A stretch of 57,226 bases of DNA, filler included, from Stramenopiles sp. TOSAG23-6 (Eukaryota), in NCBI GenBank assembly GCA_900128565.1. It is 27 parts of 27 records of this genome, joined end to end, with 100 filler letters (N's around TTAATTAATTAA, not from the genome) between each part and the next. Parts side by side here need not be neighbours in the genome. Positions count along the whole stretch, not along the records: positions 26,528 to 27,627 come from LT639724.1; 26 more parts are not named here. One strand, 5' to 3'. Shown here piece by piece: positions 3,534 through 54,768 of the stretch. The notes under the pieces are model-generated. The model made no database searches and was not told the origin of the DNA. It saw only the letters and a list, made by a program, of their open reading frames with translations. The position numbers were made by a program, and so were the translations under genes. Within the stretch, counting starts at the first letter, position 1, and each line of letters opens with the position of its first letter.

Positions 3534-3687
3534 NNNNNNNNNNNNNNNNNNNNNNNNNNNNNNNNNNNNNNNNNNNNTTAATTAATTAANNNNNNNNNNN
3601 NNNNNNNNNNNNNNNNNNNNNNNNNNNNNNNNNGTACGAAATTTTGTACCTAACGATTTTTTTTTGAAATATTTTTCCAAAATACAT

Positions 3688-4691
3688 GACATTCCTAGAA
3701 CTTTTCCAGAATTGGCTTTTTTTCATTCCGATGATTTTCCAGAAGCCGAAGCTTTGCAAAATGTGCTTGGAGCATGTATCTTTTATTTTTTTTTTAAACA
3801 AAAAAATCGAATTTATTTTTTTTTGTTTTTATAAAAATTTTGTACCTAACAAATTTTTTTAGTTTTTTTTGAAATATTTTTCCAAAATACATATGCCTGT
3901 TATAGACCGGATATCGGATATGTCCAAGGAATGTCATATTTAGCAGCAATGTTTCTATTATATATGTACGTTTTTACCATTCATTTCAAATTTTAACCCT
4001 ATTCGTATTATATTGTTACAACATTGTATTATTATTATTATTTTCTTTTTAAATTCACTACATATTTTTTTGACTTCAAATGTATTCAAAAAATACCTAA
4101 TCAAACAATCAAAATGGTTAAATATTTTCATACAATATATGGATTCTTATAGTGCATTTCAATGTATGATCAATCTTTTATCAGGTCCTTTCTATTTAGC
4201 TTTTTATCGTCTTGAAAAATGTTTGTTTCCATAACCCTAACCCTACATTCATTTTTATTTTATAGAAAATTTTGTACCTAACGAATTTTTACTAAAATTG
4301 TTTTTTATTCACAATACATGTAAAATGAAAAAGTATTTAAACGTTTATGAGAAACTACTTCAAATTGAGTTACCTCAATTAGAAAAACATTTTAAAACTA
4401 TTGGAATTACAAATGAAATGTATCTGTTAGAATGGGTGTATGTGTCTCAACCCTAACCCTAATTTTAAAAAAAAATCCGTAAAAAACATTTTGAACCTAA
4501 CAATTTTTTGTCAACCAAAAATTTATTTTTTTTCTCACAATACAGGCTAACATTATTTACAAAAGCTTTGCCTCTGACTGTGGCGTCTCGCGTTTGGGAT
4601 TCTTATTTATGTATGCAGGGTTCAGAAAGTGAATTATTTTTGTATAAAGTTTCGATTGGGATATGTAAAATTTTTAGAGATCAATTATTAT
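3688..4691 (+). CDS. TBC-domain Rab GTPase-activating protein, partial; exons 3688-3775, 3893-3965, 4141-4220, 4320-4437, 4546-4691
   Basis: Spliced product DIPRTFP...[30 protein letters not shown]...EWVLTLF...RVWD has the DxxR and YxQ TBC catalytic motifs; exon phases are consistent. Confidence 0.9.
3776..3892 (+). mobile_element. GT-AT intron, Introner-like family copy
   Basis: GCAT|GTATC...TGTACCTAAC...CCAAAATACAT|ATGCC; removal gives LGAYACYRP. Confidence 0.8.
3966..4140 (+). other. GT-AT intron (divergent)
   Basis: TATAT|GTACG...TACCTAAT...CAATATAT|GGAT; removal gives LLYMDSY. Confidence 0.8.
4221..4319 (+). mobile_element. GT-AT intron, Introner-like family copy
   Basis: AAAT|GTTTG...GTACCTAAC...CACAATACAT|GTAAA; restores frame; no AG after the branch site. 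Confidence 0.8.
4438..4545 (+). other. Canonical GT-AG intron of the same family
   Basis: GGGT|GTATG...ACCTAAC...CACAATACAG|GCTA; removal gives EWVLTLF. Confidence 0.85.
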
Positions 4692-4900
4692 GTATGTTTT
4701 ATTTTTTTTTTTAACAAAAAAATCGATTTTTTTTTTTATAAAANNNNNNNNNNNNNNNNNNNNNNNNNNNNNNNNNNNNNNNNNNNNTTAATTAATTAAN
4801 NNNNNNNNNNNNNNNNNNNNNNNNNNNNNNNNNNNNNNNNNNNTTCGTACGAAATTTTGTACCTAATGATTTTTTTTTGAAATATTTTTCCAAAATACAT

Positions 4901-5291: not shown

Positions 5292-5894
5292 TTAAATCAT
5301 TTTTTGACTTTCTCTCCATGTGACGCTTTCAAGATAAATTTGTAGAATTCCTGCTGCTACAGCAAAACAAGCTAGCTCGCATCCTCCTTTGATAGAATCG
5401 TTTATTACAATAATAGCAACAAAAGATAACGTATTTTGGAAAAATATTTGAATAAGAAATCGTTAGGTACAAAATTTCGTACGAAAAACAAAATCGAATT
5501 TGAAAAAAAAAATAAAACATACACGGTAGAAAAAACTTCGCTTTTCCCCTACACCAAATCCGTGAAATTCCCCCACATTGATGTATTGTGAAAAAATATT
5601 TTTTTTTTTATTTCGTTAGGTACAAAATTTAGTACGAAAAAAAAATTAGATAAAAAATTGAAAAAAATAAAACATACATGTACTGTGAAAAAATATTCTT
5701 TTTTTTTTTCCGTAAAAAAAATCGTTAGGTACAAAAAATTTCATCGTAAAAAACATGAAAATTTTGAAATTGAAAAAGTACATATCCATAACATAATATT
5801 AGGTTTGGGAGACAAAGTAGAACAAATGTAAAGTTATAATTTTTCGATAATGCTTCAGTAAGAGAAACATCATGGAGTTTGTTTTGTTCCTTAA
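5292..5894 (-). CDS. 3' part of a multi-pass membrane protein; exons 5894-5782, 5580-5523, 5428-5292
   Basis: Splicing gives a continuous hydrophobic ORF ...LILCYGY|QCGGISRIW...FFLP|LSFVAIIV...ESQKMI*. Confidence 0.7.
5429..5522 (-). mobile_element. GT-GT intron, Introner-like family copy
   Basis: ACCGT|GTATG...TTCGTACGAAATTTTGTACCTAAC...CCAAAATACGT|TATC. Confidence 0.75.
5581..5781 (-). mobile_element. Two adjacent GT-AT family copies (5781-5678 and 5677-5581) with no exon between them
   Basis: Each has a donor, GTACCTAAC and a TACAT end; flanking exons are in frame only if both are removed. Confidence 0.75.
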
Positions 5895-6052
5895 ATATAT
5901 TTTGGAAAAATATTTCAAAAAAAAATCGTTAGGTACAAAATTTCGTACGAAANNNNNNNNNNNNNNNNNNNNNNNNNNNNNNNNNNNNNNNNNNNNTTAA
6001 TTAATTAANNNNNNNNNNNNNNNNNNNNNNNNNNNNNNNNNNNNNNNNNNNN

Positions 6053-8280: not shown

Positions 8281-8469
8281 ATGTATTTTGGAAAAATATT
8301 TCAAAATTTTTTTTTTTTTTTGGTTAGTAAAAAAAAAAAAAAAAAATGTTAGGTACAAAATTTCGTACGNNNNNNNNNNNNNNNNNNNNNNNNNNNNNNN
8401 NNNNNNNNNNNNNTTAATTAATTAANNNNNNNNNNNNNNNNNNNNNNNNNNNNNNNNNNNNNNNNNNNN

Positions 8470-10930: not shown

Positions 10931-11108
10931 CCGGTAAAAAAAAAAATCGAATATTTTTTTTTATAGTAAATTTTGTACCTAACAAACAATTTTAGATTTT
11001 TTTTTTTTGAAATTTTTTTCCAAAATATTTATTTCTTTTCATACGAAATGTTGTACCTAACAAACAAATTTAGATTTTTTTTTTTTGAAATATTTTTCCA
11101 AAATACAT

Positions 11109-11815
11109 GATCTACAAAGAACAATTGAACGTCATATTACAAATTAAAATATATGATATTTTGGATTCAACAAACTTTCCGTATGACAATCAAAACAATT
11201 CGATTACTATTGATCAACAATTGAGAAAACTTCAAGAGACGAATAGTTTGAATTCATCGTGGTCGAAAGTGGCTGTGTATCATGTATGTGAATGATTTTT
11301 TTTTTTTTTAAGTTTTTTTCATACGAAATTTTGTACCTAACAAATTTTTAAAAAGTTTTGAANTTTTTTTTTCACAATACATTTATTCGATTTAAGTACA
11401 AATGGGAACCAAACAATCGGTCTTGCAACTCTTGCCGAACCAAGTTATAATGGTTTGTGTACAAAAAGCAATGCCTCTATTACCCGGGTGGTAAAATCAA
11501 ATCCAAGTTGGGTGACTTTTGCCCATGAAATTGGACATAATCTTGGAGGTCGTCACGTATGTTTTTACTATTAGGGTTAGGGTTGTTTTATAATTTTTTT
11601 TTTTTTTTTTTTTGGTAAAAAAATTTTGTACCTAAGAAAAATATTTTTTTTTTGAAAATAAATATTTTTCCACAATTTATGTATGGGATATCGGGCCAGG
11701 GGAACAAGCTGGTATTGGTGGAATAATGGATTATGGAGATAAATTACAACTTGATTATTCATATCAATTTCACCCTTCGAATAAAAAATATGTCTGTGGA
11801 GTTTTGAAAAAAAGA
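11109..11815 (+). CDS. Reprolysin-like (M12B) zinc metallopeptidase, partial; exons 11109-11283, 11383-11556, 11681-~11815
   Basis: HEIGHNLGGRH zinc motif and GGIMDY Met-turn come into frame after intron removal. Confidence 0.85.
11284..11382 (+). mobile_element. GT-AT intron, Introner-like family copy
   Basis: TCAT|GTATG...TACGAAATTTTGTACCTAAC...CACAATACAT|TTA. Confidence 0.8.
11557..11680 (+). other. GT-AT intron containing TTAGGGTTAGGG
   Basis: CAC|GTATG...GTACCTAAG...CACAATTTAT|GTATGG; links the zinc motif to the Met-turn exon. Confidence 0.75.
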
Positions 11816-12865
11816 TTTTTTTTTTTTTTTTTTTTTTTTTTAGTAAATTTTTTACCTAAAAATTTTTTTTAAAAATTTTGAAAAATTTTTTAAAAAAAAA
11901 TTTTTTTTTTTTTTTTTTTTTTTTGTAGTAAATTTTGTTCCTAACAATTTTTTTAGAAAATTTTGAAATATTTTTCAAAAAATATGTNNNNNNNNNNNNN
12001 NNNNNNNNNNNNNNNNNNNNNNNNNNNNNNNTTAATTAATTAANNNNNNNNNNNNNNNNNNNNNNNNNNNNNNNNNNNNNNNNNNNNAAAAAAATATTTT
12101 TTTTTTTTTTTCGTAAAAAAAAACAATTCGTTAGGTATGAAATTTTCTTATAAAAAAAAATAGGTAAACAAATCAATTTTGAAAAAAAATATTTTTTTTT
12201 TTTCATAAAACAATTCGTTAGGTATGAAATTTTCTTATAAAAATAAATAGGTAAACAAATCAATTTTGAAAAAAAATATTTTTTTTTTTTTTTCGTAAAA
12301 AAAAACAATTCGTTAGGTATGAAATTTTCTTATAAAAAAAAATAGGTAAACAAATCAATTTTGAAAATGTACAAGATGTTTGATGTGAAATAGAAAGCTT
12401 TAACAATTCTTTCTGTGAGACTAAAACAAGAGAGTGTCCATGTAATTTTACAAAGATATTTTATATTCAATTTTTCTGTTAGGTACAAAATTTGGTACAA
12501 AAAAAAATAAATTCGAAATTGGTAAAAATTCAATTTTGAAAATGTACATTTGGACATTTTATGTTTTTTTGTAATTTCTGATTTTGACGTTTTTGTTCTA
12601 ATAATTTATTCTTACGATGAATTTCATCATTCCGGCGAATAAGACTAACAATATGCTCATTTTCCTTTTTGTCATTTATAATAGCTTCACTGCGGAATTC
12701 GCGAAGTTTTGAACTGAACTGTCAAAACATATTTCAAAAATTTGATTTTTTTTGTTAGGTACAAAATGTTGTATGTTTTGGGTTAGGGTTTTACAAAAAA
12801 ATGTAGGTAAAAAAAACGTACAGACCATTGATCCAATCCCCTTGTTCAAGGGTAGTACATACATC

Positions 12866-16736: not shown

Positions 16737-17458
16737 ATATACTGTTAAAAAATATTCAAAAAAGAATGAAATTTGTTAGGTACAAAATTGTCTATGAAAA
16801 AAAAAAGNNNNNNNNNNNNNNNNNNNNNNNNNNNNNNNNNNNNNNNNNNNNTTAATTAATTAANNNNNNNNNNNNNNNNNNNNNNNNNNNNNNNNNNNNN
16901 NNNNNNNTTCCCATTTCTGCTTCGTAACTGTTAATTTCGTAGTAGATATTAGGGATCGGTCGCGAATTGTTCGATAGAGGGTCAATTTACTCGTAAGACC
17001 TCGTCGAGTTTGCCGCCCGGCCCTGTTGTTGCCCAATTTGCAGTCTACAATTTCAGGAGATTTAAGAGATTTAAGTTCAAATAAAACACCTATTTCGGCT
17101 ATGTCCTCAGTACGACTAAGCACGACTCCGGAATTCACGACTCCGGAATTCACGACTCCGGAACCACTTGGCTGCAATACGAAATTGCGGAAATTTGTAA
17201 CGAAGTTGCCTACTTCATAGTCACTCTCATTGCCACTAATAACCCGCACTTTTACATTTCGATAATCGCCAGCTTTCGTATACATCTTCCCTTCAGGCGG
17301 TTTCGGCGCCCCCAGTATTTCCACAGCAGGTTTGGAAGAATTTGTCACACGTAAACAAACGTGTAAACAAAACAGAACAAGAAACACACGAGTCATGGTG
17401 TAGGACGTGACGTTGTACATGGCAAGCTTGCAGTTGCGTGTTGGGCGTGTTAATCGCT

Positions 17459-18111: not shown

Positions 18112-19215
18112 TAAAATCAATGTCACAAACTCGAAAAGCAAAATTAAACATGATGCTTGGTATCTTACGTCATCACCTGACACATGTTGTAGTACGTGGT
18201 TGGAATTCGTGGAAGTATATGGTAAATATTGAAAAGGCAGCTGAAGAAAGAAAACGACATGCTTTAGCAATAGCTTGTAAACTTCTAATGTCAACACATA
18301 CTAGAGCTGTACACATAGGCTGGAATAAATGGGGAATTGTATGTCGTGAATTACAACATGCGGATGACGTTGCTAATTTACGAGGTAAAGCAAAAGGAAG
18401 CGATGCAGTCAACAGATTTAGACTTGCTGGAAAGAGTCTAAAATCAATGTCACAAACTCGAAAAGCTAAACTAAACATGATGCTTGGTATCTTACGTCAT
18501 CATCTTACGCATGTTATAGTACGTGGTTGGAATTCGTGGAAGTATATGGTAAATATTGCAAAAGCAGCGGAGGAAAGAAAACGACACGCTTTAGCAATAG
18601 CTTGTAAACTTCTAATGTCAACACATGCTAGAGCTGTACACATAGGCTGGAATAAATGGGGAATTGTATGCCGTGAATTACAACATGCGGATGACGTTGC
18701 TAATTTACGAGGTAAAGCAAAAGGAAGCGATGCAGTCAACAGATTTAGACTTGCTGGAAAGAGTCTAAAATCAATGTCACAAACTCGAAAAGCTAAACTA
18801 AACATGATGCTTGGTATCTTACGTCATCATCTTACGCATGTTATAGTACGTGGTTGGAATTCGTGGAAGTATATGGTAAATATTCAAAAGGCAGCTGAAG
18901 AAAGAAAACAACACGCTTTAGCTATAGCTTGTAAACTTCTAATGTCAACACATGCTAGAGCAGTTCACATAGGCTACAATAAATGGGGAATTGTATGTCG
19001 TGATTTGCAACATGCCGAAGAAGTTGCTAGTTTGCGAGGTAAAGCAAAAGGAAGTGATGCAGTCAATAGATTTAAACTTGCTGGAAAGAGTCTAAAATCA
19101 ATGTCACAGACTCGAAAAGCAAAATTAAACATGATGCTTGGTATCTTACGTCATCATCTTACACATGTTGTAGTACGTGGTTGGAATTCGTGGAAGTATA
19201 TGGTAAATATTGAAA
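18112..19215 (+). CDS. Tandem-repeat protein (327-bp/109-aa unit, more than 3 copies) with Sfi1-like W-x-x-W motifs
   Basis: Near-identical units starting at 18120, 18447, 18774, 19101; differences mostly synonymous. Confidence 0.75.
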
Positions 19216-19315: not shown

Positions 19316-20324
19316 GGTGCAAAGCATAGAGTGCAAAATGCAAAACATCGAGCGAGTGACTTTGAACATAATATTGTTGATGGTGCAAAGCATGGTGTTA
19401 GTAATATCGAGCAAAGGGTTACTTCACTTAGTCATGATATTGGCAAAAATGTGAAACATGGATCATCTTCTTTTGCTCATAAATCTGGAATTGTCCTTGA
19501 AAATGCTGAGAAAAAAATGAATCTTGTTAAAACTGGTTTTAAAACTGGTTTAAACCATATGGTGTCTCATGTACTACCAAGTACTGAAAACATCAGAACG
19601 TTTACAAAAAGGAAACTTCGTGAGAGAATTGCTGAACGAAAACGCGTTGAGTTATTAGCTGCTGCAACGGAAAAGGCTGCATTAAAAAAAGCGAAACAAA
19701 GAAAAAAGGAAAAAGCTCGAAATACATTTTCACCATCAAGACGATCTAACCCTAACCCTAACCCTAAAAATCGTTCTCAGGATGATACGACCTCTAGTTC
19801 TCTTGATTTTTCAGATATTGCAGTTGTGAAAATGAGAATGGGTAAACAAAAAGACGAAGCACAAGAAAGATTACGTGTTTTAGAATCTGCACGAAATGTA
19901 TGTTTTATTTTTATTTTTTTAAATTTGATTTTTTGTATGAATTTTTTTTTTTTTTTTTGGTTTTTTATAAAAATTTTGTACCTAATAAATTTTTTTTTTC
20001 GTAAAAAAATTTTGAAATATTTTTCCAAAATAAATGGTCTTCTAGAAATGCAAGCTTTACGCAAAAGAGGTCATATATTTGACAGACAAGACACTCTTGA
20101 TCATGATGATGATGATGATGATGATGATGTGTCTTCTTTGTATACTATGTATGTTTTACTTTTTTTTTTTTACAAAAAAATCAATTGTTTTTTTCGTACG
20201 AAATTTTGTACCTAACGAATTTTTTTTTGAAATATTTTTCCAAAATTCATACAAAATTATGGTAAAACATTTGTAGAAACATTTCAATCTTTTGTAATGG
20301 CAGGTGAAAATTCATGTTTAGGAT
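19316..20324 (+). CDS. Hypothetical protein, partial; GT-AT introns at 19898-20035 and 20149-20250
   Basis: Junctions ARN|GLL and YT-I-QNYG keep the frame; third donor at 20325. Confidence 0.65.
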
Positions 20325-20518
20325 GTATGTTTTTATTTTTTTTTTACAAAAAAATCGAATTTATTTTTTCATACGAAATTTTGTACCTAACGATTTTTTT
20401 TTCAAATATTTTTCCAAANNNNNNNNNNNNNNNNNNNNNNNNNNNNNNNNNNNNNNNNNNNNTTAATTAATTAANNNNNNNNNNNNNNNNNNNNNNNNNN
20501 NNNNNNNNNNNNNNNNNN

Positions 20519-21831: not shown

Positions 21832-22783
21832 GTCTGTTCGTTTGTGGGATGGTGCATCAGAGAAATGTCTTCGAATATTGCAACATCCTGATATACCATG
21901 TGTTGCTTGGCACCCTTCAAGGCCTTCATTTTGTCTGACAGGTTGTTGTGATTCAAAATTAAGAGTATGGGATTTAAGTCTTGATTTGCGTTCTTCTACT
22001 GAAAGTCGTGTAGGGTTAGGGTTAGGGTCTGAGAAGATTTGTGGTAGTGAAAATCCAAGAAAAGAATTATGTAAAGTTGTCGATTGGACATCAACACCAA
22101 GCCCTGTAACTGCAGTTACATATAGTTTAGATGGAGATATGGTTGTTGCAGGATTATTTAATGGTTTATGCATTTTTTTCACAACGAAAACGACGACAAA
22201 TCTTAATAGTGTTTGTTTTTCTTACATAACTTTTTTTTTTTTTTACCAAATTTGTTTTTCTACCGAATTTTGTACTTAACAATTGTTCTGGAAAAAAAAA
22301 ATATATATATTTTTACAATACATTTTAAAGGTAAAAGAACATCTATTGTACATAGAAATAGAAACTTACCTCCACGAATGCAGTTTCTTAGAAAAGTTGT
22401 TTGTCGTAATCGACATGGCGCGATGGCTCAAGGAAAAAAAGTGACTGGTATGGAATTCGATGATAGTGTATGTTTTTTTCATTCATCATGAATATTGTAG
22501 CTAGATTTTTTTTTTTAAATTCTATATATGTATACAGTTTCATTATGGATTTCAAATGTATGTATTTGTTTTGTATCACATTTCATATACTAAACAAGAA
22601 AAAAAAATTAAAATATTTTTTTGTTTACATGGAAATAGACTTTTGGTAACAACAAGCGACTCCCGAATGCGAATTATAAAAATCCAAAAACTACAAAATT
22701 CTTCAGGTAATTCAAATGATAATAGACTTAGTTTTATAATCAGTGATAAACTAAAAGGCCTTGAAAATAAAGATACTGGATAT
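21832..22783 (+). CDS. WDR44-like WD40 protein, partial; exons 21832-22210, 22324-22467, 22631-22783
   Basis: VRLWD, CVAWHP, DSKLRVWD, CRNRHG..GKKVTGMEF, RLLVTTSDSRMRI; introns end in CAT. Confidence 0.8.
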
Positions 22784-23261
22784 GTATGTTTTCAGGATCA
22801 ATTTTAAATTCATTTATTTTTTNNNNNNNNNNNNNNNNNNNNNNNNNNNNNNNNNNNNNNNNNNNNTTAATTAATTAANNNNNNNNNNNNNNNNNNNNNN
22901 NNNNNNNNNNNNNNNNNNNNNNATTTCAATTTCGAATTTATTTTTTTTTCTACGAAATGTTGTACCTAACGATTTTTTTCTAAAATATTTTTTCACAATA
23001 CATCAGTATCACTACCATCTCATAAAAGTAAAAATAGACGGAAACGAAGTAGGAAAACTCCTGCAATAAAACGAACAAAGTCTTGTTCTCTCGTACCTGT
23101 ATTAAATGATAGAAATAGTCAATATGGTAAAGAAATTGTCGGCAGGAAAGTTCGTATCTGTTTAAATGGTGGTTATAGTGTAGGGACAATCGCAAAGTAT
23201 GAGCAAGGTCGACGTTGTAATGTTTTAGTTGGTGTGATTTTACCTTTTCTAGGATCTTACT

Positions 23262-25226: not shown

Positions 25227-25381
25227 NNNNNNNNNNNNNNNNNNNNNNNNNNNNNNNNNNNNNNNNNNNNTTAATTAATTAANNNNNNNNNNNNNNNNNN
25301 NNNNNNNNNNNNNNNNNNNNNNNNNNTTTCGTACCTAACAAATTTAAGTTTTTTTTTTTGAAATATTTTTCCAAAATACAT

Positions 25382-26390
25382 GGTACTTACAATGATAATG
25401 AGGTAACATTCTCTTCAAAAGATTTTGCAAGTCAAGACACCTTAATGTTTTGTAAAAACGATATTTCTAATGAGGATTGTCATTTATTTAAAACATCCCT
25501 TGATGTAATTGAAAACATTTTAAGTATGATGAATAAATACGAAGTTGGCTTGAGTGATGCCACTCTTGGTCATTTACTAAAACAAGCAACTACAAATTGC
25601 ATTGAAGATGTTGTTCATCAAAGAAAACACATTGAAGATGTTGTTCAACAAAGAAAACAATTGGGTATAAAAAGTAAGCGAAAATATAATAAGTATAGTG
25701 CGTTACATGGAGGTGCATCTCGTCATGTATGTTTTATTTTTTTTCAAATTCGATGTTTTTTTCTTACGAAATTTTGTACCTAACGGTTTTTTTTTGAAAT
25801 ATTTTTACAAACACATGGTTTGGCTCCAGAATATTCAGCGATAAGTTTTGCGCAAGGTCTGAAACTTTTAGATACAGTTGAATCATTTGTCCTTGTACGT
25901 TTTTAAGCCTAACCCTAATTTCAAAAATATTTTTTTTTCGTACGAAATTTTGTACCTAACAAATTTCAAATTTTGAAATATATTTTGACATTTCATGGAC
26001 CTGGTAAACCTCAACAATTTCTTCCTAGCCAAATTGCGTATTGGGCAAATCGTATTCAAAGATCTCGCAATGAAATCAACAATAAAATGAAAACAATTTC
26101 ATTACTTACAAAAAAAAAAAAAAAAATTGAAAATATTTCAGCAAAACCAAAAGATATTGTCAATTTAAAATTGCTTGACAATTTATTAAAGTCAAAAGAT
26201 ACGAAACCATTACATTTACATAAACCAAAAGATACGAAACCATTGCATGTACCATTACATTTCCATAAACCAAAAGACATTAAACCATTACATGGTCTTG
26301 ATCTTATTATAACTCGATCATTATCACTTTCACCTCGAACGAGAGAAATCATTCGTATGAGTAAAACACTACAAAAACCAAATAGTATAT
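25382..26390 (+). CDS. Hypothetical protein, partial; GT-AT introns at 25727-25816 and 25895-25996
   Basis: Exons of 345, 78 and 394 nt join in frame (SRH|GLA, FVL|GPG). Confidence 0.65.
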
Positions 26391-26527
26391 GTATGTTTTA
26401 TTTTTTTTTCAAATTCTTTTTTTTTTTNNNNNNNNNNNNNNNNNNNNNNNNNNNNNNNNNNNNNNNNNNNNTTAATTAATTAANNNNNNNNNNNNNNNNN
26501 NNNNNNNNNNNNNNNNNNNNNNNNNNN

Positions 26528-26620
26528 GTATGTTTTATTTTTTTTTCAAATTTGTTTTTTTTTCGTACGAAATTTTGTACCTAACGATTTTTTTTTGAAA
26601 TATATTTTTCCAAAATACAT
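26528..26620 (+). mobile_element. Consensus-like 93-nt copy of the intron/Introner element
   Basis: GTATGTTTTATTTTTTTTCAAATTT...TTTCGTACGAAATTTTGTACCTAACGATTTTTTTTTGAAATATATTTTTCCAAAATACAT. Confidence 0.85.
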
Positions 26621-30422: not shown

Positions 30423-32290
30423 TTATAGAGTTAAGAATTCATCACCAGTGTTCCTACTAGGAAGATGTGTGGTATATTTCTGATTAATACGAGGTTGGCG
30501 CATACTAGTACCACATCGTCTTAATAATTCAAAATAGTGTTCCCTATCGATAGAAATATTTTCATCATTAAATTCACTATCACTCAACATCGGTGCATAA
30601 CTACGACTTTGCTCAGTGCTTTGCGAGACATCGTCACTAATTTTGGTCTCTTTTTGAAAGTTAGAGTCAGGGTTATTGTTGATCTCAGACTCTATTGGAT
30701 ACTCCATTTGATCTAATTGTCGCCTCATTGAGCGTCTATTTTGACCACGACGTCTAATATCCGGATCTAATTTGGAAGTGGTTTCATTAGAAGTTTTACT
30801 AGAAAATCTCAATGCTGGAGGAAATTGTGGTGCTTTTAATTTTGTTGGTGGTATAATGACATTTCTCGATTTGTATCTTAATTCTAATTCATGCCTTTGT
30901 TTTGAAAATGAAACTTGTCCTTCGACAGGTCGAATATGTATTGTGAAAAATTTTAAAATAAAAAAAAACATTAGACACACAATTTCGTATCAAAACAAAA
31001 ATAGGTAAAAAATTCGTGTTGAACACATACATACTTGAGGCGTGCTTGCTTCCTAGCCTTCATATTTTCAAAGTTTTCGTGTTTAGCAAGATACTTATTC
31101 TTTTCTATCCAACGGGCTCTTGCATTACGTAGTTGATTTCCTGCTTTTGAATTACCAATCCCTAAACTATCTATTTCTATTTTAGACACGAAATCGTCAT
31201 CCATTGTTTTCTGGATCTTCTGTTTCGTTTTCTCTTTCTGGTATCTTTGCGATTTCCCTTTTTTTCTATTTCTGTTATGATACAAATATGCGTGTTTACC
31301 CATTTTCTTTTTACCTCTACCTCTATTAGATGTCTTTGACTTCACATTTGAACCTTTTCGAATCCTGACTTCTTTCAATGATGTTTTTAGAGTAGATGTC
31401 ACAGGATGCTGAGACCCAAGACGCTCAAGTGCAATTGCAATACCTCTTTGATATGCAGCAGTTGCTTCAAAATAGCGTCTTAAATGCTCCAATGACGCCC
31501 CTTCATTATGGCAAGCAATACACAATACGGCAACACGCCCACGAACAGCTTCAATCTCAGATAATTCTGCATCTACCCCAGTTGTTTTATCATCATAATC
31601 ATATGCCGAAACTTCTTTTTGTAACAGTTGTACAGCCTGACGAGCATGAATTACAGCCTCGCTATGATGTCCCAAAAGAGATAAAATTGCACACATATTT
31701 AAGTGTGTATCTCCAGGGGATAGAGGATTATTGATTGAGCTTTCAATTTTTTCTGCCATTGAAAGATATTCCAAAGCTCTCTCCAAGAAGTAATTTGGAG
31801 TACTCATTTGATGCTTCCTCTGACGAAAATGTTTCATTTTTTTAGTTGTTGCTATGTTACTTTCATGATTGTATCGAGATCGAAGTAAACAGGCAAAATT
31901 ATTATATGTTACAGCAAGTTGTCTTTCATTGTGTGTGTGAAATATTTCAGCCTTTTCAAGGAAACCAAAAGCCTGGTCAAATAAACGAATACTAGCACAG
32001 CCACTTTCTATATCATTTTGACAACTTATACCCAGTTCATTGCACAACTTTCCTGCTTTCGTACAAGCGTCGCGGAATTCTTGACTATCAGAGCCAAAGA
32101 TTCTTTTGAGTATAATCACTTCATTTTCTCGACAGACTAATGAGCCTTCTTTGTCGCCAGATGCAATACAAAGCTTAGCATTATTTCTAACTTCTAAAAG
32201 TTGAGCCATGGCTTCATTCTTTTCTGAATTATTCGAGTCGCTGTCATTGGCTATCTCATCAAGTTTTCCATCTCCACTCTGTTCGCTCAT
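30423..32290 (-). CDS. TPR-repeat protein; exons 32290-31031 and 30935-30423, GT-AT intron at 31030-30936
   Basis: TYNNFAC, THLNMCAILS, IACHNEG TPR motifs; RLKY|IRPV junction joins the two ORFs exactly. Confidence 0.8.
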
Positions 32291-33949: not shown

Positions 33950-36340
33950 CTATTTTTTGATATCGGAAACTTCATCACCTTTATCATCACCTTGCGCTTC
34001 TAAATTTTTTTGAAAAACATAGACTGCGTAAACATGCTTACCATAATTCGAGTTCCTCAATTCTTTCTTTTTCTTTTCAATTAAGTCCCTCAATAGACTC
34101 AAATGTTTTCCTTTTGCTACTTGTAACATTTTCTTAACAACAAAATTGCCAAATCTATTTACCATCAAAGATTCTATACGAAATTTAGAATCCTCTTGAA
34201 TTAATAATTCCTCAAACATCAAATTTCTCCGTTCTGGAGAAGAATATTCTAGACATCTTTCAACAATATTAGATCCCGCTTTATGCTGTGAGAACTGAAA
34301 TAAAAACCCTTGTAATCGTTCTGCAACATTGCTTATCGCCTCTTGATCTCCAGAGCGACATACGAATTGGACTACGTAATTTCCGAAACTATTTTTCACA
34401 AGTCCAGTACAATCCCTCAAAATATACGACATGAGATCTGATGCTTCTGGCATTTTAGCACAAAACTTTTGTATACGTTGTATTACTCTACACCCATAAT
34501 GATGTTTTGCAATTACATTGAAGTTTTTCATACAAATACTAACTATTTCTCCCTTATTTGGTGCTGAGGAATATTCCAAGATCTTTTGTATCACATGATT
34601 TCCATGTTCATCAATTACAAGAGCCATTACCTGTTCTTTTAATTCTTCTATAATTTCAGTTTGTACGTTGGGTTTGAAATAAACTATTGCTTGTTGGACT
34701 ACACGACATCCATATTTATGCAATGAATACGAAAAATATTTTCCTTTTAATTGTTGTGATAATCTATCTAATTGTGAACTGTTGCCTACTTCGAAAAACA
34801 TTTGTACTAGATAATTACCAAAAATGTCATGAGTATATAAATGAAGATCTTCTATTATTTCGAGAAATATTTGTTCCTTTTCCTCTTCTGTAGCTATTTC
34901 TATTGCAGCATTCCTAACATGTTTACCACCAAGATGTCCACCTAATTTATCTTGAAGAAATCTGCAACAAATGGAGTCACGTGCAAATACTTTCAAATCG
35001 CCCAACAATTGAGATATTTGAATCAAGTATGGGGCTATCTCAAGAGAGCGTCTCAGTTTTGCTTGCTGTACTGTAAAAGTGACTATAGGGTTAGGTTTAC
35101 GATTTCTATTTACTGCATTCTTTTTCTTGTCCAATGTATTACCAGTTGATCGCTGCTGAGGGGCATTTCTATCTCTTCCTTTTGAGTAATTTTGTTTTGT
35201 TACAAAATCCATACCTAACGAATTTCTTTGTCCCTGGGGAGTATGCTGACGAGTGTTTGGTGACCAATTTCTATACTGATTATTATCTGTTGGATTTGGG
35301 AATGTTTCCCCATGAGATCTAGAATACATTACATGAGGATTTTGATTATATGTATGATCTGCTTTGTTTTTATGTGCGAAAGACTCTGAATCTTCCAGTA
35401 CAGAAGGATCATACATTCTTTCATCATAAAATACTGTGCTATATTTATTTCCATAATATGCCGGTGACGTCATCATCGGATTGCCGTGGTATATTGGAGG
35501 CATTGGTGGCATTTCATATCCTACATTTATTCTAGGTTGTTCAGGTGGTACACCCTCGTGTGAATTTTTATCACTAGATTGTGTCTGGGTTTTTTCCTCA
35601 GTTTTGGAGCCATTGTGAAAAACATTTTCAGCAGTCGATTCGTCCTCATTATTTTCTGATTTTTGTTCTGACTGAGTCCACTCCAATGNATCCTGCGGGA
35701 ATTGTGGAGGTGCTTCCATATATAAATATGGACCATACATACCATAATTCGGCATGAACTCCATCGCGAAGTTTTGTTGTCCTCCCCCAGGTCCATAGTA
35801 AACTCCTTCTGGAGGTNTGTAGAAGGCTGATGTCTTCCAGAGGACTTCATCATCAANAGTTTCATTTTCATTTGCTACTTTATTGGTATCTTCATCCTGA
35901 GTTTCATTGGTACTTGTTTCATTGTTTTGCGAATGCTCTTTATTGCTATTTTTGTGATTTNGAGCACTTGTTCTCTTTTCAATATCAGGTTGAACTGCTT
36001 CAGTAGACTTTTCTTTCACAACTTCATTATTATTAACTATAGTATCTAACTTACCCTCAGACTTCAAAGCTGTAGCACAAAATCGGTCTATGACTGAAGT
36101 AGAAACATCACTAGTAATAGAATCTGAAGTTTGCTGTTGATCTAGAGTACCTTCGTTTTCGTGACTAAATGTATCATTATGAATGGGAGATACGTTTCTT
36201 TTTCCAGTATCTACAGTTTCAACATTCAACGATTTCTTTCCATCAGCCGNTTTTGGATTAAAACAAGTAGGAGAGGTTGTCTCAATTTCAGACTTGCTTG
36301 TTTGTGTCTCTTTTTTTNCAGCTCTCCCAATATTTGACAT
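33950..36340 (-). CDS. Pumilio/PUF RNA-binding protein
   Basis: Eight PUF repeats (CRFLQ, NYLVQ, CRVVQ, NHVIQ, CRVIQ, NYVVQ, SNIVE, NFVVK) and YGKHV. Confidence 0.93.
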   Translation of the reverse strand: MSNIGRAXKKETQTSKSEIETTSPTCFNPKXADGKKSLNVETVDTGKRNVSPIHNDTFSHENEGTLDQQQTSDSITSDVSTSVIDRFCATALKSEGKLDTIVNNNEVVKEKSTEAVQPDIEKRTSAXNHKNSNKEHSQNNETSTNETQDEDTNKVANENETXDDEVLWKTSAFYXPPEGVYYGPGGGQQNFAMEFMPNYGMYGPYLYMEAPPQFPQDXLEWTQSEQKSENNEDESTAENVFHNGSKTEEKTQTQSSDKNSHEGVPPEQPRINVGYEMPPMPPIYHGNPMMTSPAYYGNKYSTVFYDERMYDPSVLEDSESFAHKNKADHTYNQNPHVMYSRSHGETFPNPTDNNQYRNWSPNTRQHTPQGQRNSLGMDFVTKQNYSKGRDRNAPQQRSTGNTLDKKKNAVNRNRKPNPIVTFTVQQAKLRRSLEIAPYLIQISQLLGDLKVFARDSICCRFLQDKLGGHLGGKHVRNAAIEIATEEEKEQIFLEIIEDLHLYTHDIFGNYLVQMFFEVGNSSQLDRLSQQLKGKYFSYSLHKYGCRVVQQAIVYFKPNVQTEIIEELKEQVMALVIDEHGNHVIQKILEYSSAPNKGEIVSICMKNFNVIAKHHYGCRVIQRIQKFCAKMPEASDLMSYILRDCTGLVKNSFGNYVVQFVCRSGDQEAISNVAERLQGFLFQFSQHKAGSNIVERCLEYSSPERRNLMFEELLIQEDSKFRIESLMVNRFGNFVVKKMLQVAKGKHLSLLRDLIEKKKKELRNSNYGKHVYAVYVFQKNLEAQGDDKGDEVSDIKK

Positions 36341-36760
36341 TGTCTCAATCNGAATATTTCCGTCTATTTGCTTCTAATAGTCATTCGAAATCTTGGAGAT
36401 CTGGTTCGGTAGTGTTCAGAAATACAAATATATTGCAAGTTGCAACGGCCGAAGCCGTTTATCGAAAAAGGTACACAACAACACGATCAACGAAAGACAG
36501 GTTTGTTATGTAGTCCTATTTTTTTCATACGAAATTTTGTACCTAATGAACAAAAGCTTTTCTTTTTTTCAGAAAGTTCTTTTCCGTTTCAATATCTTGA
36601 TTTTTTTTTTCATACAAATTTTTGTACCTAAACAAAAAAAANCTCGGAAGAGGAATAAGATTCTCACTCGCTTCTGCTTCCACAGTCGACACTCCTATCT
36701 TCTGTACAGCTGATAATTCTAAATCGTATTGTATTTTGAGTGTATAGCGAATAATTCATC

Positions 36761-38131: not shown

Positions 38132-38454
38132 AAATTATTTTTTTTGTACCATGTATTTGTATGAAATGTAAAAAAATAAACAAAAAAATAAACAAAAAAA
38201 TAAAAAATAAAAATTTATGTTTTTTTTGTGTAAAATCCTAGTAAGACTACATCAAGTTTCAAGTTGAACTGCACTTTCTTTAAAAGTCTCGTTCAAGGCN
38301 NNNNNNNNNNNNNNNNNNNNNNNNNNNNNNNNNNNNNNNNNNNTTAATTAATTAANNNNNNNNNNNNNNNNNNNNNNNNNNNNNNNNNNNNNNNNNNNNT
38401 TTGTACCTAACAAATTTTAGTTTTTTTTTTTTGAAATATTTTTCCAAAATACAT

Positions 38455-39889: not shown

Positions 39890-41416
39890 ATGGCAACATT
39901 TTGGAAGTCTTATGAAAAGCATTGGTGTAAATATTGCAAGACATGGATGCCTGGTAACAAGAGTTCTATTATAAATCATGAGAAAGGAAAAAGGCACAAA
40001 GAGGCTGTGTTGAATCATCGCATGCAGTCTCGGAAGAAGAATGCTGAGAAACTCGCGAAAAAAAAAGCTGCTGATAAGATGATAAGAGATCTAAATCGTG
40101 CAGCGGAGGCGCAAATGGATAAAGACATGTCAGGTGGACTATTGAATAATCGTAGTGGTTTTGCGCGGCCTTCCTCAGAACGTCAGCAACACGATACTCG
40201 TCCGGAACAAAAGACTCAGGGCAAAGCACCCAAGAAAAAGGAAAAGCCGAAACAGAGTGTCCCGGGTCCATATTGGCCTCGCCCAAAAGCTCCTCCCAAA
40301 GAAGAGCGTGATCTCGAAACATATCCTCCAACTGACAATCGTTTCAAAGGTCACTTTATGGTCCATGGAGTCACTTATCTTAGTTCTGCTGTTTTTGAAA
40401 GAAAATTGTGCATTGGGGTCGAGGTAGAAGTATGGGATCCAAGTAGTAGCATTTGGAGAATTGGAATAATAAATGGTGTTAAGTTAGTCAATAGTAATGA
40501 AAAAAATAGTGTAACTCCAGCCATCATTAGGAGATACAGAGTGAATACGTCGATACAAGATCATGATATTTGTGATGATGAGTTATCCAGTGACCCTAAC
40601 CCTATTTGTGATGATCAGTTAAAAAAGTTATCCACTGAAAATGTTTATATATTCACTGCCATTGAAGGATTGCGTCTAGTCCCTCCTGGACCTCCAAGTT
40701 TAAGTTTTCATGTACAATCAAATATAGATCACAAAGAAAGTTATATGAAAAAAGAAGGTAATGAGATTCACTCAGATAATGAGATTGACTCAGATAATAG
40801 TAAAAGCAATAGTAAAAAACGACGAAAAAAATCTCGTTGGGGGCAGAATAACCCTATCCCTAATAACCCAAGTAAGAATAAAGTTGAGTTGAATGAAGAG
40901 GATAATAATAAAGAAAGTATTGCTACTGAGAAGACTAACGCTAGTATGTCTGAAATTTTTGGTTTTGGAAATTGGGAAGTTATGAAGAAAATACCAAAAA
41001 AGACAGACAAAATAAAACCCACAAAAGAAATTCATAAATATGCTTTTGCGAATGAAGCAGAGGCAAAAGCATATTATAAACATCAAAAACAAACTGCTAA
41101 AGGATACGATTTTGAAGGTGACAATCCAGATGATCATGAAGGAGTTGTTGATGCATTATCAGCAGCGAATCCACATGTATGTTTTATTTTTTTCAATTTT
41201 TTGTCTAAATTTTTTTCGTACGAAATTTTGTACCTAACAAATTTTAGGTTTTTTTTTTCAAAATATTTTTCCAAAATACATGGTGGTGCGTATCGAGGTG
41301 TTCAAATTTGTGATAAAGCTCAAACGAGAGCAGAAATGATGACAACAAAGCAAGACGATGGAACAAAAGTTAAATTTAAAAAGAAGCGGAAGAAAAAACG
41401 AAAAAAAATGGGTTAA
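39890..41416 (+). CDS. WBP4/FBP21-like U1-type zinc-finger spliceosomal protein; GT-AT intron at 41177-41281
   Basis: M..FWKS..KHWCKYCKTW...HEKGKRHK and basic FKKKRKK tail; spliced NPH|GGAYRG. Confidence 0.8.
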   Translation: MATFWKSYEKHWCKYCKTWMPGNKSSIINHEKGKRHKEAVLNHRMQSRKKNAEKLAKKKAADKMIRDLNRAAEAQMDKDMSGGLLNNRSGFARPSSERQQHDTRPEQKTQGKAPKKKEKPKQSVPGPYWPRPKAPPKEERDLETYPPTDNRFKGHFMVHGVTYLSSAVFERKLCIGVEVEVWDPSSSIWRIGIINGVKLVNSNEKNSVTPAIIRRYRVNTSIQDHDICDDELSSDPNPICDDQLKKLSTENVYIFTAIEGLRLVPPGPPSLSFHVQSNIDHKESYMKKEGNEIHSDNEIDSDNSKSNSKKRRKKSRWGQNNPIPNNPSKNKVELNEEDNNKESIATEKTNASMSEIFGFGNWEVMKKIPKKTDKIKPTKEIHKYAFANEAEAKAYYKHQKQTAKGYDFEGDNPDDHEGVVDALSAANPHVCFIFFNFLSKFFSYEILYLTNFRFFFSKYFSKIHGGAYRGVQICDKAQTRAEMMTTKQDDGTKVKFKKKRKKKRKKMG

Positions 41417-47867: not shown

Positions 47868-48039
47868 CTGCCCCGGCAACACTGGCAACAAGGTCACCGT
47901 TTTCAACATATGTACCGTGACCACGAAGCAAGCCTTCATGTGCAGTTACACATTCACCTGGAACAACCACAATCTCATTAGTTGTTCCCGGCGAATGAGA
48001 TAGAGATATATTATCTCGTAAAATGTGCACGGTAGTCAT
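47868..48039 (-). CDS. RRP4: Exosome complex component RRP4, 5' fragment
   Basis: VVPGE......LRGHGTY.....LVASVAG. Confidence 0.88.
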
Positions 48040-48321
48040 GCTTGTGCTTCCGCTCTCTTCATGGAATGAGTCGATCGATAACGAGGTGTTTTCTCAGATG
48101 AATGGCTCGTGATTTTTCCACGTGTGCGCTGAATATATATATGTTCGAGTTACCCGGTCACCGCATCGAATCAAATTCGTGCGTTACAGACCGTTAAACT
48201 ATTCGTAATGCAATTAAATTCGTAATATACACTCAATAAATTTATTTTCTAGTACTACGGTACTCTAGTTGTAGCCGACTGAGCTACGCATATAGCAGTA
48301 AATGACTTAAAAAAGAAAAGC

Positions 48322-51314
48322 ATGTCTCTATGGAAATCTGAAATTAGTGAGAAAAAAATATCGGAAAGTAAAGATACCTTAAAGCTGCGGTGTTCAAAGT
48401 GTGAATTTCCAGCGGTAAAAGGTTGCCGAAATTGTGGTTTATATGGATTACTTTATTGTTCAGCCTGTCTGTCAGACCATTCTACACATCCTCGATTTAG
48501 TACTCATAAACCATGTACAATAATAGAGTTGAATACATATAATAAAGCGCAAAAGGAGTGGGCTGATAAATATAGGAAACGGCAAAAACAGAAAGTACTA
48601 GAAGAATCTGAGAAAAGAGACATTATAAAGAAAAAACAGTTGCAACTATCAAGGACACAACATAGACGCCGTGTTCAGACTTCAGAAATCTCTCATCATT
48701 TCAAAAATTCAACACATAGTACTTCAAAAATAGTTATCTTTAAGTTTGCTTCAGGATCTCGCTATGAAGGTGAAATACTTGATAAAGCTCTTTCTGGTGG
48801 GCAAAACACACCAAATGGATACGGTGAGCTATTTGCCTCAGAAACTTCGCATCCACCAGGTCATCTACAATACGAAGGAATGTGGCGTCAAGGTTTACGT
48901 TGGGGTAAAGGGACACGTTTTTGGCCTGATGGAGGTAGATGGGAAGGTAGTTATAAACAAGATCAAATGCATGGATCCGGTAGATATTATAAGTTTACGA
49001 AGGGTGATCCAGTTCCTATAGTTGATTGGTGGTACTATAGATATAATAGAAGAGTTGCCACTTGGCAAGACCTTGTATGTGGAACCCGTATAAGTGTAGT
49101 GGGCAGGAAAGGTTTACCACCCAGATGTGCTACTCTCGTAGCTCGTGATAGTACTAAACATCACCACAGAGTAAAGTATGATAATGGAGTTTATGCTGCT
49201 TGGCATGACCTTGGATCCCTAAATTTTACAGTAATTCATGATCAACCATTAGTAGATATGCCAGAAAATATGAAAATGATTCCTCATAAAAAAAATACTC
49301 CTTTAAGAGAAATATCTCGTATTGATAGGTTTAATGATATAATCTCTTCTCTGGGGAGTAAATCATCACTAAGAAGTAATATTGTTAAGGATATCGCACA
49401 ACGCAAAAGTCACATACAAAATGCATTAAAAATGATTAAAAAGGTTGGTGCTCGAAAACAGAAGAAACTTCGAGAATCCATTGACATGCATAATACTGCT
49501 ATACATAAACTACAAAAAAGTTTAAATAAGTTATTGAAAGATGTTTCCATGAGCTATGGTATTACCGATACATGTCTCAGACACCCATCTATATCATCTG
49601 AGTGGCCGCTTAACACAGATAATGCACAATGGGGTCACTTGAGAGAAGCGCCATTCATGCAAAGTAATAATCTCTCTGCACCTTCGAAGTCTTCATTTAT
49701 ATTCAAATCTCGGCGTAGTATTGAAGAAGATCTAAGGCTTGCCGAATTAATGTCTCCGAATAGTGGAGAAAATTCTCGACCAGAAACAGCACAGGAAAAA
49801 CTTGTAAAACATCATCAAGCTAGAATGTCGAATATAGCGAAATTATCTGAAAGGAAATTACGTGCAAATACATCTCACAAAAGAAGGATGCAGATGAAGA
49901 GTCTGGAAGAAAGATGTAGAAAATCATCAAAACGAAATCTACCTAATTTAACTCCTCTCACACTTAAACTATTAAAACGAGCTGATCCTGCAACTGGTGG
50001 TGTTATAAGAGACGCACTTCGTAAAATTGGTGATCCTCGACTAGAATATTTTGAAAATGATGATAGGAAAAAGGTTCATTGCGATGATAATTGTCAGGAT
50101 CTATATGACGGCGAGGATCAATATCTAGACGGCGAGGATGCTCATGATTACGGCGAGGATGAATATGATGAACTCAGTGATGGTGAGGATACATATGATG
50201 ATGGTGAAGATAAATATGATGATGGTGAAGATGATGCTCATGATAGCGGGATTATTAAAAAGAATAGTTTGTCAAACCAAGTTAATGACTATGACCATAA
50301 TATGAAGAATAACATTGAAAAAAGTAAAGTAACAAATGATATTCAGATTAGTAGAGATAGTTTTACTGTACAAAAACCTGTAAATAAGGGACAGGAAGAA
50401 GTAAAAGCACCGAAATGGATTACTAAGAATAAAGCTACGACTAACCCCATCTTAGGCAATAATAAGGTAAAAATGTTTTTTCCTAATAATGACAGTACGC
50501 CAAAGATGAGTGAAGCTTTGGTTAGCGGTGCGAATAATAATGTAGAGAAGGTAATACTAAGTAAAAGTGATAAAACTACAACTAATCCAAGAAAAAGTTT
50601 AATCGAAGCTTCCAATAGTAAAAGTGATAAAACTACAACTAATCCAAGCAAAAGTTTAATCGAAGCTTCCAATAGTACCGATGCTCGTAAGATTTCAGAG
50701 CTCATTATTCATAATAAAAACATGGATAATAAGAATCCTGTTAGAGTTGATAATAAAATTAGGAAATCGTCAACCTTTGGAAGTGGAATCCGCACACTTC
50801 ATTACTACAAGTCTAAATGGAGGTTACAACCTCATTTTGGACTAAAAACGCCTTTATTGAAACTTCCAAATAAGGCGCATACATTAGTAAAGGATATTCT
50901 AAATGTAACAAGTACTCGAATAGCAGTTATGGCAGGGGGGGGGGGGCAACTAAAAATCAAAAAAGCGTTGTGGGTAGTTCAATATATGGAAAACAGACAA
51001 AAGATCGAGTTAAATGTTCATCACTTGTGGATGGTGATGCATTTAGATCATTTAGACATCTACGTAGATTTCATAGCAGGCGTATAAGAGGTCTAAAGAA
51101 TGCATTAGATGTTGCGAATGAAATAAAAGTAGATGTGGAATATAAAGAAGAAAATGACACTGAAGAAATTTCATTTGAGGGAGAAAAAAATACAGCAAAG
51201 CAAAAAATTAAGTATCAAGACGATGGAACTGAAATAAGTTGTCAAAATATTACAGTTAGTACTCCAAGAAAACGCATTGTTCAAACTATTAGAGACGCTT
51301 TTGAAAAGTGGTAA
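48322..51314 (+). CDS. B-box zinc finger plus MORN-repeat protein; probable frameshift at a G12 run (50935-50946)
   Basis: C..C...C..C...YC..C...H....H; YEGMWRQGLRWGKG, WEGSYKQDQMHGSG. Confidence 0.75.
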
Positions 51315-51354
51315 TTTCCACAAAATTAAGTTTTTTAATAAATAAATTATTGTT

Positions 51355-52845
51355 TCATAATTCTAAATGTTTTTTCGTAAGACTCTGCAATTTCTTCATG
51401 AAATATAAATGTAAAGTCTTAAATAGTCGTTTTTGTTGTACACGAAACAAAATTGCTGTTCGTTGATTATCCGAAACTTCCACCACTTCCTTCAAAATGT
51501 TTTGAAGTAAAGTTTCATCGGTGCTTTCATCATTTACATATGAAGAGTTAATTTTCACATCTAGTAAATTTGTGATCATCTGTAAAGCATCGACGTTGTT
51601 TTTGGTGCTATATTCACCTTTAAAAATTTTACTTTGCCCTGAACTATCGTTCAGTAATTGTAAAGCAGTTTCAACAGGTAATTTCATTAATCGAGCATGT
51701 ACTGTGATTTTTTTTTACGGAAAATAAATCGTTAGGTATAAAATTTGGTACGAAAAAAAAATAAATTTGAAATTCAAAAAAATAAAACAAACATGAGACT
51801 CAATGGATTGTACTTCTCTATCCAAATTATTCAATTTGCCATCCATGAATTTTTTTAATTCCAAAGATTGAATAATTAATCTAGGCATAATCCTCATTTG
51901 GCGAAATATTGGGAACAATGACTTGTCTGGCATTGGCATCTCCAGCTCTATCGTATCATACGAATTATCTTCAAGTACAAAACCATGGTATAAAAGATTA
52001 TGTTGGTTTGAAGAACCATAGTTTTCAAAAAGCTGGTCACCACTCTTCACAGACCAAATTGACTTCGTTATTGTTTCTGTTTTCCCGTTTGTATTTGTTA
52101 TTTTTTCTGTCCTGTGTACTTTCGTGGGGTGATTTTTGTTATTGACCATATCAAGCATAGGTAAAAAACTACGGTGGCGACCATTAATCCAAATTGTTCT
52201 AGAATCGACAAGTGCATTGAGCCACAAATAAATGTCATAATTCCAACTATTTCTTGGCTTTTCTCCAAACAAATGTGAATTTTCGGCAATAATATTATTT
52301 AATTGATTCCATTCATTTTTTGTCTTCTGCTTGTACTCTTTAGATAACTTATCCACATCTGTTCCTCGAAGCTCCTTTAGTTCATCTTCGTCCCAAAATA
52401 TAGGTATGTTAAAACTTGCAGGGAGTGTGTCAATATATGGTTTCCAGAACGATGGATCAGAATCAGGTCGATTTAATTCATAATACATAAAAAACATCAG
52501 AATGTGTGCAACGTCTAGCTTGTATTTCTGCTGTAACTCACGGAAGTCTTCACCGACGTCAGAGGCATAGATTGAATCTTCGTTGATTATTAGATGCCAA
52601 GGAAGGCGCAGATAGTCTTCACCTATAGCAATATCGAATCGAGCTCGTGTACCCATGCGAAAACCTGGGATTTCAGCCAGTTCAATTTTACACCACTCCT
52701 TCCCATTATTTGAGTCAATCCAATCGTTGAAATTCTTGGCAAGGGACGATGGAGTTCCTGAACCAACGTACGTCGTTGCAATCAAGCCAATAGCCGTAAC
52801 AGAAGGCGAAAGTAACAGAAACAATACATAAACAAGCAAATACAT
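51355..52845 (-). CDS. SET-domain protein-lysine methyltransferase (Rubisco LSMT/SETD3-like); exons 52845-51793 and 51696-51355, GT-AT intron at 51792-51697
   Basis: SFWKPYIDTLP, PIFW...EL..L.GT, SR, PMLDMVN, GDQLFENYG...LL.HGF. Confidence 0.88.
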
Positions 52846-53101
52846 TATTTAGTTTAAAGATGAACAGCGAAGTGATATTAAATTACCCTAATTTAATTGA
52901 AAGAAAGTTACCTTCAATCGAACAATTATTATTCCGAATCTAAATCTCAAATAAATCTATCCGCGAACTCCGCGAATCTTGAAAACCTGAAAAAATGGGA
53001 GAAAACGAAAAATAGAAAATTTGAAAATTAACATCAGATTATTTATTCTCAAAAATCCATTTTATTGTGAGTAAAAATAAATAAATATAGCTCATAATAA
53101 A

Positions 53102-54640: not shown

Positions 54641-54768
54641 TCATACATAGTATAAGCTCTTGTAGAATAATTATATGACTTAATGAGTATTCGCGCACCA
54701 GAATTAGAATCAAAAGAGAATACCTACATACCTACATGTGTTTTTGTAAATATTGTTGAAATAAAAAT

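Follow-up and report, generated by a model that had tools for sequence, protein, structure and literature searches.

What are the short, similar sequences that interrupt unrelated genes of Stramenopiles sp. TOSAG23-6, and how have they come to lie there? The question is raised by a stretch of 57,226 bases from this genome (assembly GCA_900128565.1; hereafter the window), in which an initial annotation recognised a high-copy element, represented by the copy at 26528–26620, and proposed that it is an Introner-like intron family. The copies are true introns, and they are best explained, with a probability of about 0.7, as a family of intron-generating, non-autonomous, Introner-like mobile elements in an AT-rich marine eukaryote. 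The window comprises 27 contigs or scaffolds (24 of ~1.1 kb and three of ~9.4 kb) and 26 linkers (44 N, TTAATTAATTAA, 44 N); its GC content ranges from 24 to 39%.

The copies share one layout: GTATGTTTTATTTT, a core of 25 nucleotides (nt), a T run and then GAAATATTTTTCCAAAATACAT. The core, TTTCGTACGAAATTTTGTACCTAAC, consists of a 16-nt near-palindrome, GTACGAAATTTTGTAC, with the halves GTACGAAA and TTTTGTAC, directly before CTAAC. It occurs 20 times in the window at three or fewer mismatches (seven times exactly), compared to none in 100 shuffles, and 27 times at four or fewer; the 5′ 17-mer is found 14 times at two or fewer mismatches, where 0.12 are expected. With a search profile built from nine copies and a match threshold of E ≤ 0.01, 42 matches were obtained in the window (25 plus, 17 minus), covering 2,762 of its 54,778 non-N bases (5%). 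At least 12 different genes carry copies, in agreement with the annotation's claim that unrelated genes are interrupted, and the six positions it had offered as examples are all copies, 5429 being the low end of a minus-strand copy. Their length runs from 90 to 149 nt, rather than the ~90–120 nt first given. Identity between whole copies has a median of 67% (range 49–87%, 17 copies), whereas 12 of 253 pairs of 3′ halves are at least 93% alike, the best 98%; the ‘almost verbatim’ likeness originally described thus holds for the core and some 3′ halves, and not for whole copies.

That the copies are introns, precisely excised as first proposed, follows from reading frames, one RNA joint and one orthologue alignment taken together. 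The frame test used the 16 complete copies without a terminal AG and set the exact cut, which begins at the G of GTATGT and closes with the T of the final xAT, against removals one or two bases longer. The exact GT...xAT cut gave the best joined frame in 13 of the 16 copies (chance 1/3, P 1e-4), and ten of the 13 copies with a clear frame are in phase 0. The claimed sense orientation also stands: the longer open frame is the sense one in 22 of 25 flanks on the downstream side and in 13 of 18 on the upstream side (four boundaries a few bases off).

The window DNA is present in seawater metagenome and metatranscriptome runs, including X2, an independent seawater DNA run ~99% alike to it, and X7, a polyA metatranscriptome run. 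The comparison with these runs covers one contig, 47868–57226, on which stretches without RNA cover are uninformative. A contig of X7 skips 96 nt, 51696–51791 with four letters of slack, which corresponds to the copy at 51697–51792; the same run also skips the 54386–54484 intron of the M18 aminopeptidase gene, as GT-AG. Both introns are kept in X2. Orthologues of the SET/LSMT-like protein that hosts the 51697–51792 copy align straight across the junction; the alignment of P0124 takes in the downstream exon from its residue 1 (SIFTQ/AR versus SIESH/AR when read by eye, the slash marking the junction). At the metalloprotease junction, Pfam profile positions 14–57 and then 75–122 are only roughly consistent with continuity; the junctions in the WD40 and TPR genes fall in variable regions and are uninformative.

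What had escaped the initial annotation is that the acceptor differs from AG. ACAT forms the end of the element, and AT or GT closes 16 of 18 complete copies, so that canonical GY-AG ends, which all surveyed introner families have, are not a feature of this one. The donor is GTATGT, with the consensus GTATGTTTT (one copy has GTATCTTTT); CCTAAC stands ~35 nt from the intron end and T-rich CA motifs 7–9 nt from it. Each copy does carry its own donor and branch-like site, as had been suggested, CTAAC being branch-like by sequence and the putative branch point. The GT-AT register fits 14 of the 16 non-AG copies, and the other two read GT-GT. In 12714–12821, 36501–36572 and the copy ending at 21831, CAG takes the place of the CAT of their relatives. 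On account of this fit across copies and of the CAG-for-CAT members, the T or G position is taken as the last letter of the intron, and excision would be in the GT-AT register.

A possible but unlikely alternative retains the same mobile family, but with splicing by minor (U12-like) machinery or in the AT-AC register, and with the conserved 3′ block (TTTTTCCAAAAT / TTTTCACAAT / TTTTGACAT, 7–9 nt from the end) as the real branch site. According to the accessible part of one study, GT-AT ends are productive for U12-type introns and rare in U2-type introns (PMC1557818), and by our own comparison GTATGTTTT agrees with GTATCCTTT at seven of nine positions; the donor nevertheless has G rather than C at +5, the U12 CC is missing, and the element consensus does not match the U12-type donor [AG]TATCCTT. 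In Blastocystis, itself a heterotrophic stramenopile, hundreds of young-looking minor introns, mostly AT-AC and half of them in phase 0, are described in the portion of the report available (PMC10639083), a phase preference which the element copies share (10 of 13). AT-AC is permitted by nine of the 16 non-AG copies but impossible in the other seven. A U12 branch motif, TTCCTTRAC, is expected close to the 3′ end, and the CCTAAC, ~35 nt away, is too distant to suit one well. In our own pairing, no match was obtained between the 3′ block and canonical U12, and an Rfam scan of the window returned no matches. GTATGT is also a plain U2-type donor in many protists and fungi.

The relationships between copies point to a mobile origin. 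Their 3′ halves sort into types (A, CGATTTTTTTTTGAAATATTTTTCCAAAATACAT; B, CAAATTTTAGG...; C, ...TTCACAATACAT; and D, ...GACATTTCAT with a CCCTAA-like insert) which are defined by common diagnostic variants, and homology continues through the spacers. The 5′ and 3′ halves occur in mosaic combinations; for example, one 5′ half is common to 41177 and 5677. The closest pairs of 3′ halves (95–98%) are halves at contig ends. Nine of 52 contig ends fall inside a profile match, against 2.6 expected (P 0.001), with several more, by eye, in 5′ parts beyond the reach of the profile, so that the complete copies within contigs probably represent the more diverged part of the family; the six contig starts and stops named by the annotation do lie within the core. 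Contigs of the DNA run X2 also break inside the element, on which ~100 small X2 contigs pile up (summed depth 395 versus ~8, a hint only). Subfamilies with diagnostic variants, 3′ halves that are up to 98% alike and contig breaks in the element together argue for mobility, probably by transposition at the DNA level. The proposal of an Introner-like mobile family is thus upheld as regards subfamilies and assembly breaks; from these we infer the mobility itself.

The dinucleotide at the end of the upstream exon equals that at the end of the intron in 13 of 18 copies (AT/AT in 11, GT/GT in one and AG/AG in one; shuffle mean 8.9, P 0.003); T is the last letter of the upstream exon in 17 of 18. These figures suggest, without proving, a target duplication of 2 nt, and in this family too the acceptor seems to come from the duplicated target. 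In the mechanism proposed, each copy brings the donor GTATGT, the 16-nt near-palindrome with CTAAC, the T run and the conserved 3′ block. Insertion would duplicate 2 nt of target, and the downstream copy would be used as the acceptor, AT in most copies, GT in two and AG in a few diverged ones, and be accepted by the host spliceosome. With the first G of GTATGT and the final T of (C)AT as its outermost letters, the excised stretch would then leave the transcript with its coding sequence uninterrupted. In its complete form, namely a transposon that makes introns with a 2-nt target copy as acceptor and is removed by a U12-like or a G-relaxed major spliceosome, the proposal is a tentative one.

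It is rather doubtful that the family, instead of being a DNA transposon, spread through RNA by reverse splicing followed by reverse transcription and recombination, the route put forward for Introner-like elements of fungi. A sense orientation, which every copy with coding flanks has, would suit such a route, but selection in a gene-dense genome is also expected to leave a sense-only pattern. The minimal inverted repeat and the failure to see a transposase in the 30 scanned frames agree with spread through RNA, and the exon-end T (17 of 18) and the CAT preference could reflect a proto-splice site. Reverse splicing does not, however, predict that exon-end and intron-end dinucleotides covary (AT/AT, GT/GT, AG/AG; P 0.003), and the partial tandem arrays and abutting copies also speak against it.

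It is improbable that the introns are non-mobile and vertically inherited, alike through long and strict splice signals. Conservation is indeed strongest in three blocks (donor, core and 3′ end), but homology runs through the spacers, subfamilies have common indels and mosaic halves, and the 16-nt palindrome is no known splice signal. Nor would such signals account for 3′ halves up to 98% identical, for tandem and abutting copies or for contig breaks in the element. The same genome has an intron, that of M18, which is spliced although it lacks these blocks, and at the intron site the distant orthologue P0128 (44% identical, from a contig of 19.7 kb) shows no interruption of its single open frame. 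That everything is an artefact of amplification or assembly chimeras, with the RNA joint due to template switching at the CATG repeat, is very improbable: contigs are short, many end in the element and the joint has a 4-nt repeat, but such a repeat is short for template switching, the independent X2 DNA (~99% alike) has this copy at its place, 13 of 16 copies keep the frame and the orthologue alignment agrees.

Several points weigh against introns made by a mobile element. Three of the 16 copies gave no clear frame result; these are two members of the tandem trio, with very short exons, and one copy without an upstream frame. The RNA evidence comes from one contig at one locus, with a shorter side of 31 letters, and since CATG stands at both edges of 51697–51792 the cut there is ambiguous over five places (GT..AT, AT..AC, TG..CA, CA..TA and TT..TG). 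Whole copies are only 49–87% alike and their conservation is block-wise, a pattern that selection on the signals of each copy would give as well. The GTAT...ATAC ends first reported are present, yet this terminal inverted repeat is only 4 nt (GUAU/AUAC pairing), six copies fold no better than shuffles (z −1.8 to +1.2), and the terminal 4-bp stem is present in two of the six minimum-energy folds. When the two AG copies are left out, the duplication test gives 12 of 16 (P 0.058), and the third position shows no excess (nine of 15 matches versus 7.6 expected). A transposase domain was absent from the 30 open frames scanned in the window (of 45 at ≥130 amino acids), and neither an empty site nor a presence/absence polymorphism was seen, X2 carrying the copy at the one locus compared.

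The family acts like published Introners that take one splice site from a target duplication, and differs from them in lacking canonical ends. The comparisons that follow hold for the accessible parts of the cited publications. Chrysochromulina-type introners (Gozashti et al. 2022, PMC9860276) are likewise many similar short copies at unrelated gene positions, with their own 5′ splice site, last intron letters that repeat the exon end and a coding sequence that is restored; their duplication is 4 nt, compared to ~2 nt here, and their acceptor is AG rather than AT. Those of Micromonas and Aureococcus (PMC11282704, PMC7789003) are also small, non-autonomous and sense in the genes of marine picoeukaryotes, with a short target duplication and terminal inverted repeats. 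Their duplication is of 3 nt, their inverted repeats are clear and their motifs canonical, whereas the present family has a 4-nt repeat and a non-canonical 3′ end. The non-canonical introners of Amoebophrya (PMC7789003) are similarly repeated non-GT-AG introns with border-overlapping direct repeats and no internal transposase. They have hairpin inverted repeats of 8–20 nt, direct repeats of 3–5 nt and no fixed end dinucleotides; here the ends are uniformly GT-AT, the donor and the branch site have a classical look, and folding lends no support to a hairpin, an inverted repeat of the 8–20 nt hairpin-forming kind being absent from the six folded copies.

Introns of Fritillaria borealis and Euglena (PMC11282704, PMC13326754, PMC12501133) resemble the present ones in being likely derived from miniature inverted-repeat transposable elements and precisely removed despite non-GT-AG ends. 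Neither has a GTATGT donor: Fritillaria uses AG-AC and AG-AT, and in Euglena positions +4 to +6 pair with −8 to −6. U12-type GT-AT introns and their expansion in Physarum (PMC1557818; 10.1101/2020.10.12.336362) share the GT-AT pair, a T-rich donor extension and many recent introns, but here there is no CC at +5/+6 and the branch-like site is far from the end; for the Physarum expansion, no link to a repeat family is reported in the part available (10.1101/2020.10.12.336362). Published introner surveys use annotated GY-AG introns, and families with unfamiliar sites and without RNA support have been discarded (PMC12130899, as far as its accessible text goes). A description of the element family was not found in a literature search that included PMC5778133, PMC8163842 and PMC12614181, papers on uncultured marine stramenopiles; supplements, such as the family list of PMC9860276, may hold it.

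The copies and related features of the window are collected in Table 1. Some copies have a telomere-like (CCCTAA)2 stretch near the 5′ end (4221–4319, 25895–25996 and, on the minus strand, 12714–12821), and in 11557–11680 such a stretch is in the opposite sense (TTAGGGTTAGGG). The contig start at 25327–25339 has a core variant without 12 nt between two GTAC half-sites (TTTCGTAC/CTAAC), which is either a deletion across the palindrome or an assembly jump. At 5581–5781 (minus strand) one complete copy directly follows another in head-to-tail order, without an exon in between. The first copy's 3′ AT forms the 5′ flank of the second, an arrangement like that expected from insertion where an earlier copy ended. 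The M18 intron bears a by-eye likeness to a decayed copy; it was missed by the profile and is not counted. A weak antisense match at 35185–35227 lies within an open PUF frame and is taken as chance.

Table 1. Element copies and the comparison intron, with positions counted along the window
Position	Strand	Feature	Remarks
26528–26620	+	Focal copy, 93 nt, type A	Contig starts here, so 5′ flank missing; downstream, open frame of a GATA/C2H2 zinc-finger protein
51697–51792	−	Copy in SET/Rubisco-LSMT-like gene	96 nt skipped in RNA; CATG at both edges
41177–41281	+	Complete copy, 105 nt, phase 0, U1-type zinc-finger gene	Flanks CAT/CAT
25727–25816	+	Complete copy, 90 nt, phase 0	
25895–25996	+	Complete copy with CCCTAA-like insert	Ends TTCAT, exon ends CTT; AT-AC register ruled out
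19898–20035	+	Complete copy, 138 nt, phase 0	Flanks AAT/AAT
20149–20250	+	Complete copy, 102 nt, phase 2	Ends TTCAT; AT-AC register ruled out
20325–20418	+	Copy with 3′ end cut by contig end	
11284–11382	+	Complete copy, phase 0, reprolysin-like metalloprotease gene	
11557–11680	+	Complete copy, 124 nt, phase 0, same metalloprotease gene as 11284–11382	Exon AC, intron AT: no repeat
5429–5781	−	Three copies in a row	5678–5781 and 5581–5677 abut without exon; 58-nt exon; 5429–5522 (CGT/CGT)
3776–3892	+	Complete copy, 117 nt, phase 1	Donor GTATCT
4221–4319	+	Complete copy, 99 nt, phase 1	CCCTAACCC insert
22211–22323	+	Complete copy, 113 nt, phase 0, WD40 gene	Exon ends GT, intron ends AT
30936–31030	−	Diverged complete copy, 95 nt, phase 0, TPR gene	Joins frames of >300 and 170 codons
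13031–13179	−	Copy ending ACGT	No open frame upstream
12714–12821	−	Family member, canonical GT-AG, in frame	TTCAG where 25895–25996 has TTCAT
36501–36572	+	Short diverged family member, GT-AG ends	Flanks CAG/CAG
3634–3687	+	3′ half at contig start	
4844–4900	+	Similar cut copy	
5895–5952	−	Similar cut copy	
8281–8369	−	Similar cut copy	
16737–16807	−	Similar cut copy	
22923–23003	+	Further cut copy	
25327–25381	+	Further cut copy	
38400–38454	+	Further cut copy	
4692–4743	+	Cut 5′ part	
26391–26427	+	Cut 5′ part	
10952–11108	+	Two tandem 78-nt partial units, core to 3′ end	
11802–11982	+	Further partial-unit array	
12088–12513	−	Further partial-unit array	
54386–54484	+	M18 aminopeptidase intron, ordinary GT-AG, for comparison	Spliced in RNA run X7

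Gene models from the source organism bear on how such introns are annotated. The M18 aspartyl aminopeptidase gene matches the coding-sequence model GSMAST32.ASY1.ANO1.2271.1, whose label suggests a marine stramenopile; the kept blocks are identical, and the M18 model (P0002; 53102–54640) omits conserved segments of a continuous frame. The C-terminal end of P0121, a model of a MEC-17 acetyltransferase, reads into an element copy (DEY/VCFIFF...), and P0121 was the one match in a word search with the read-through region of a copy. The read-through peptide of a copy had no matches among 1.84 billion protein representatives, nor did an exact 20-mer of the core among Joint Genome Institute (JGI) metagenome contigs. 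A 16-mer was found at 28 loci in viral contigs, where the likeness is limited to the seed 16-mer (best E 0.003), and this is taken as chance. In the orthologue P0131 (on an 11.6-kb contig), a 27-residue insert from MFCLTLIS follows EFPG (alignment A1, columns 75–101) and looks like a read-through intron beginning GTATGTTT, in another species. The chain of contigs is ordered by decreasing length, with linkers that provide a stop in all six frames, and contigs that are neighbours here are consequently not neighbours in the genome. At 18112–19212, inside one open frame (18114–19214), lie 3.4 copies of a 327-nt unit at 94% identity; the frame encodes a repeat protein that fits no Pfam family clearly.

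No source of bursts of intron gain is better supported than Introners, whose known families were found through annotated GT/GC-AG introns. With a classical donor and an AT acceptor, whole intron populations can be missed by surveys and gene predictors, as is seen where source gene models run into copies or drop exons. Related copies that differ only in T or G at the last nucleotide provide a natural test of how that nucleotide is chosen. The family widens the range of intron-generating elements to include heterotrophic marine flagellates that only single cells and metagenomes have revealed, and if the P0131 insert is a read-through intron, related introns may exist outside the source organism. 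Should the element prove to be a transposon with a 2-nt acceptor, a mobile element would have driven a mass origin of GT-AT introns, a process of the kind suspected for the U12-type expansion of Physarum and never tied to a repeat family.
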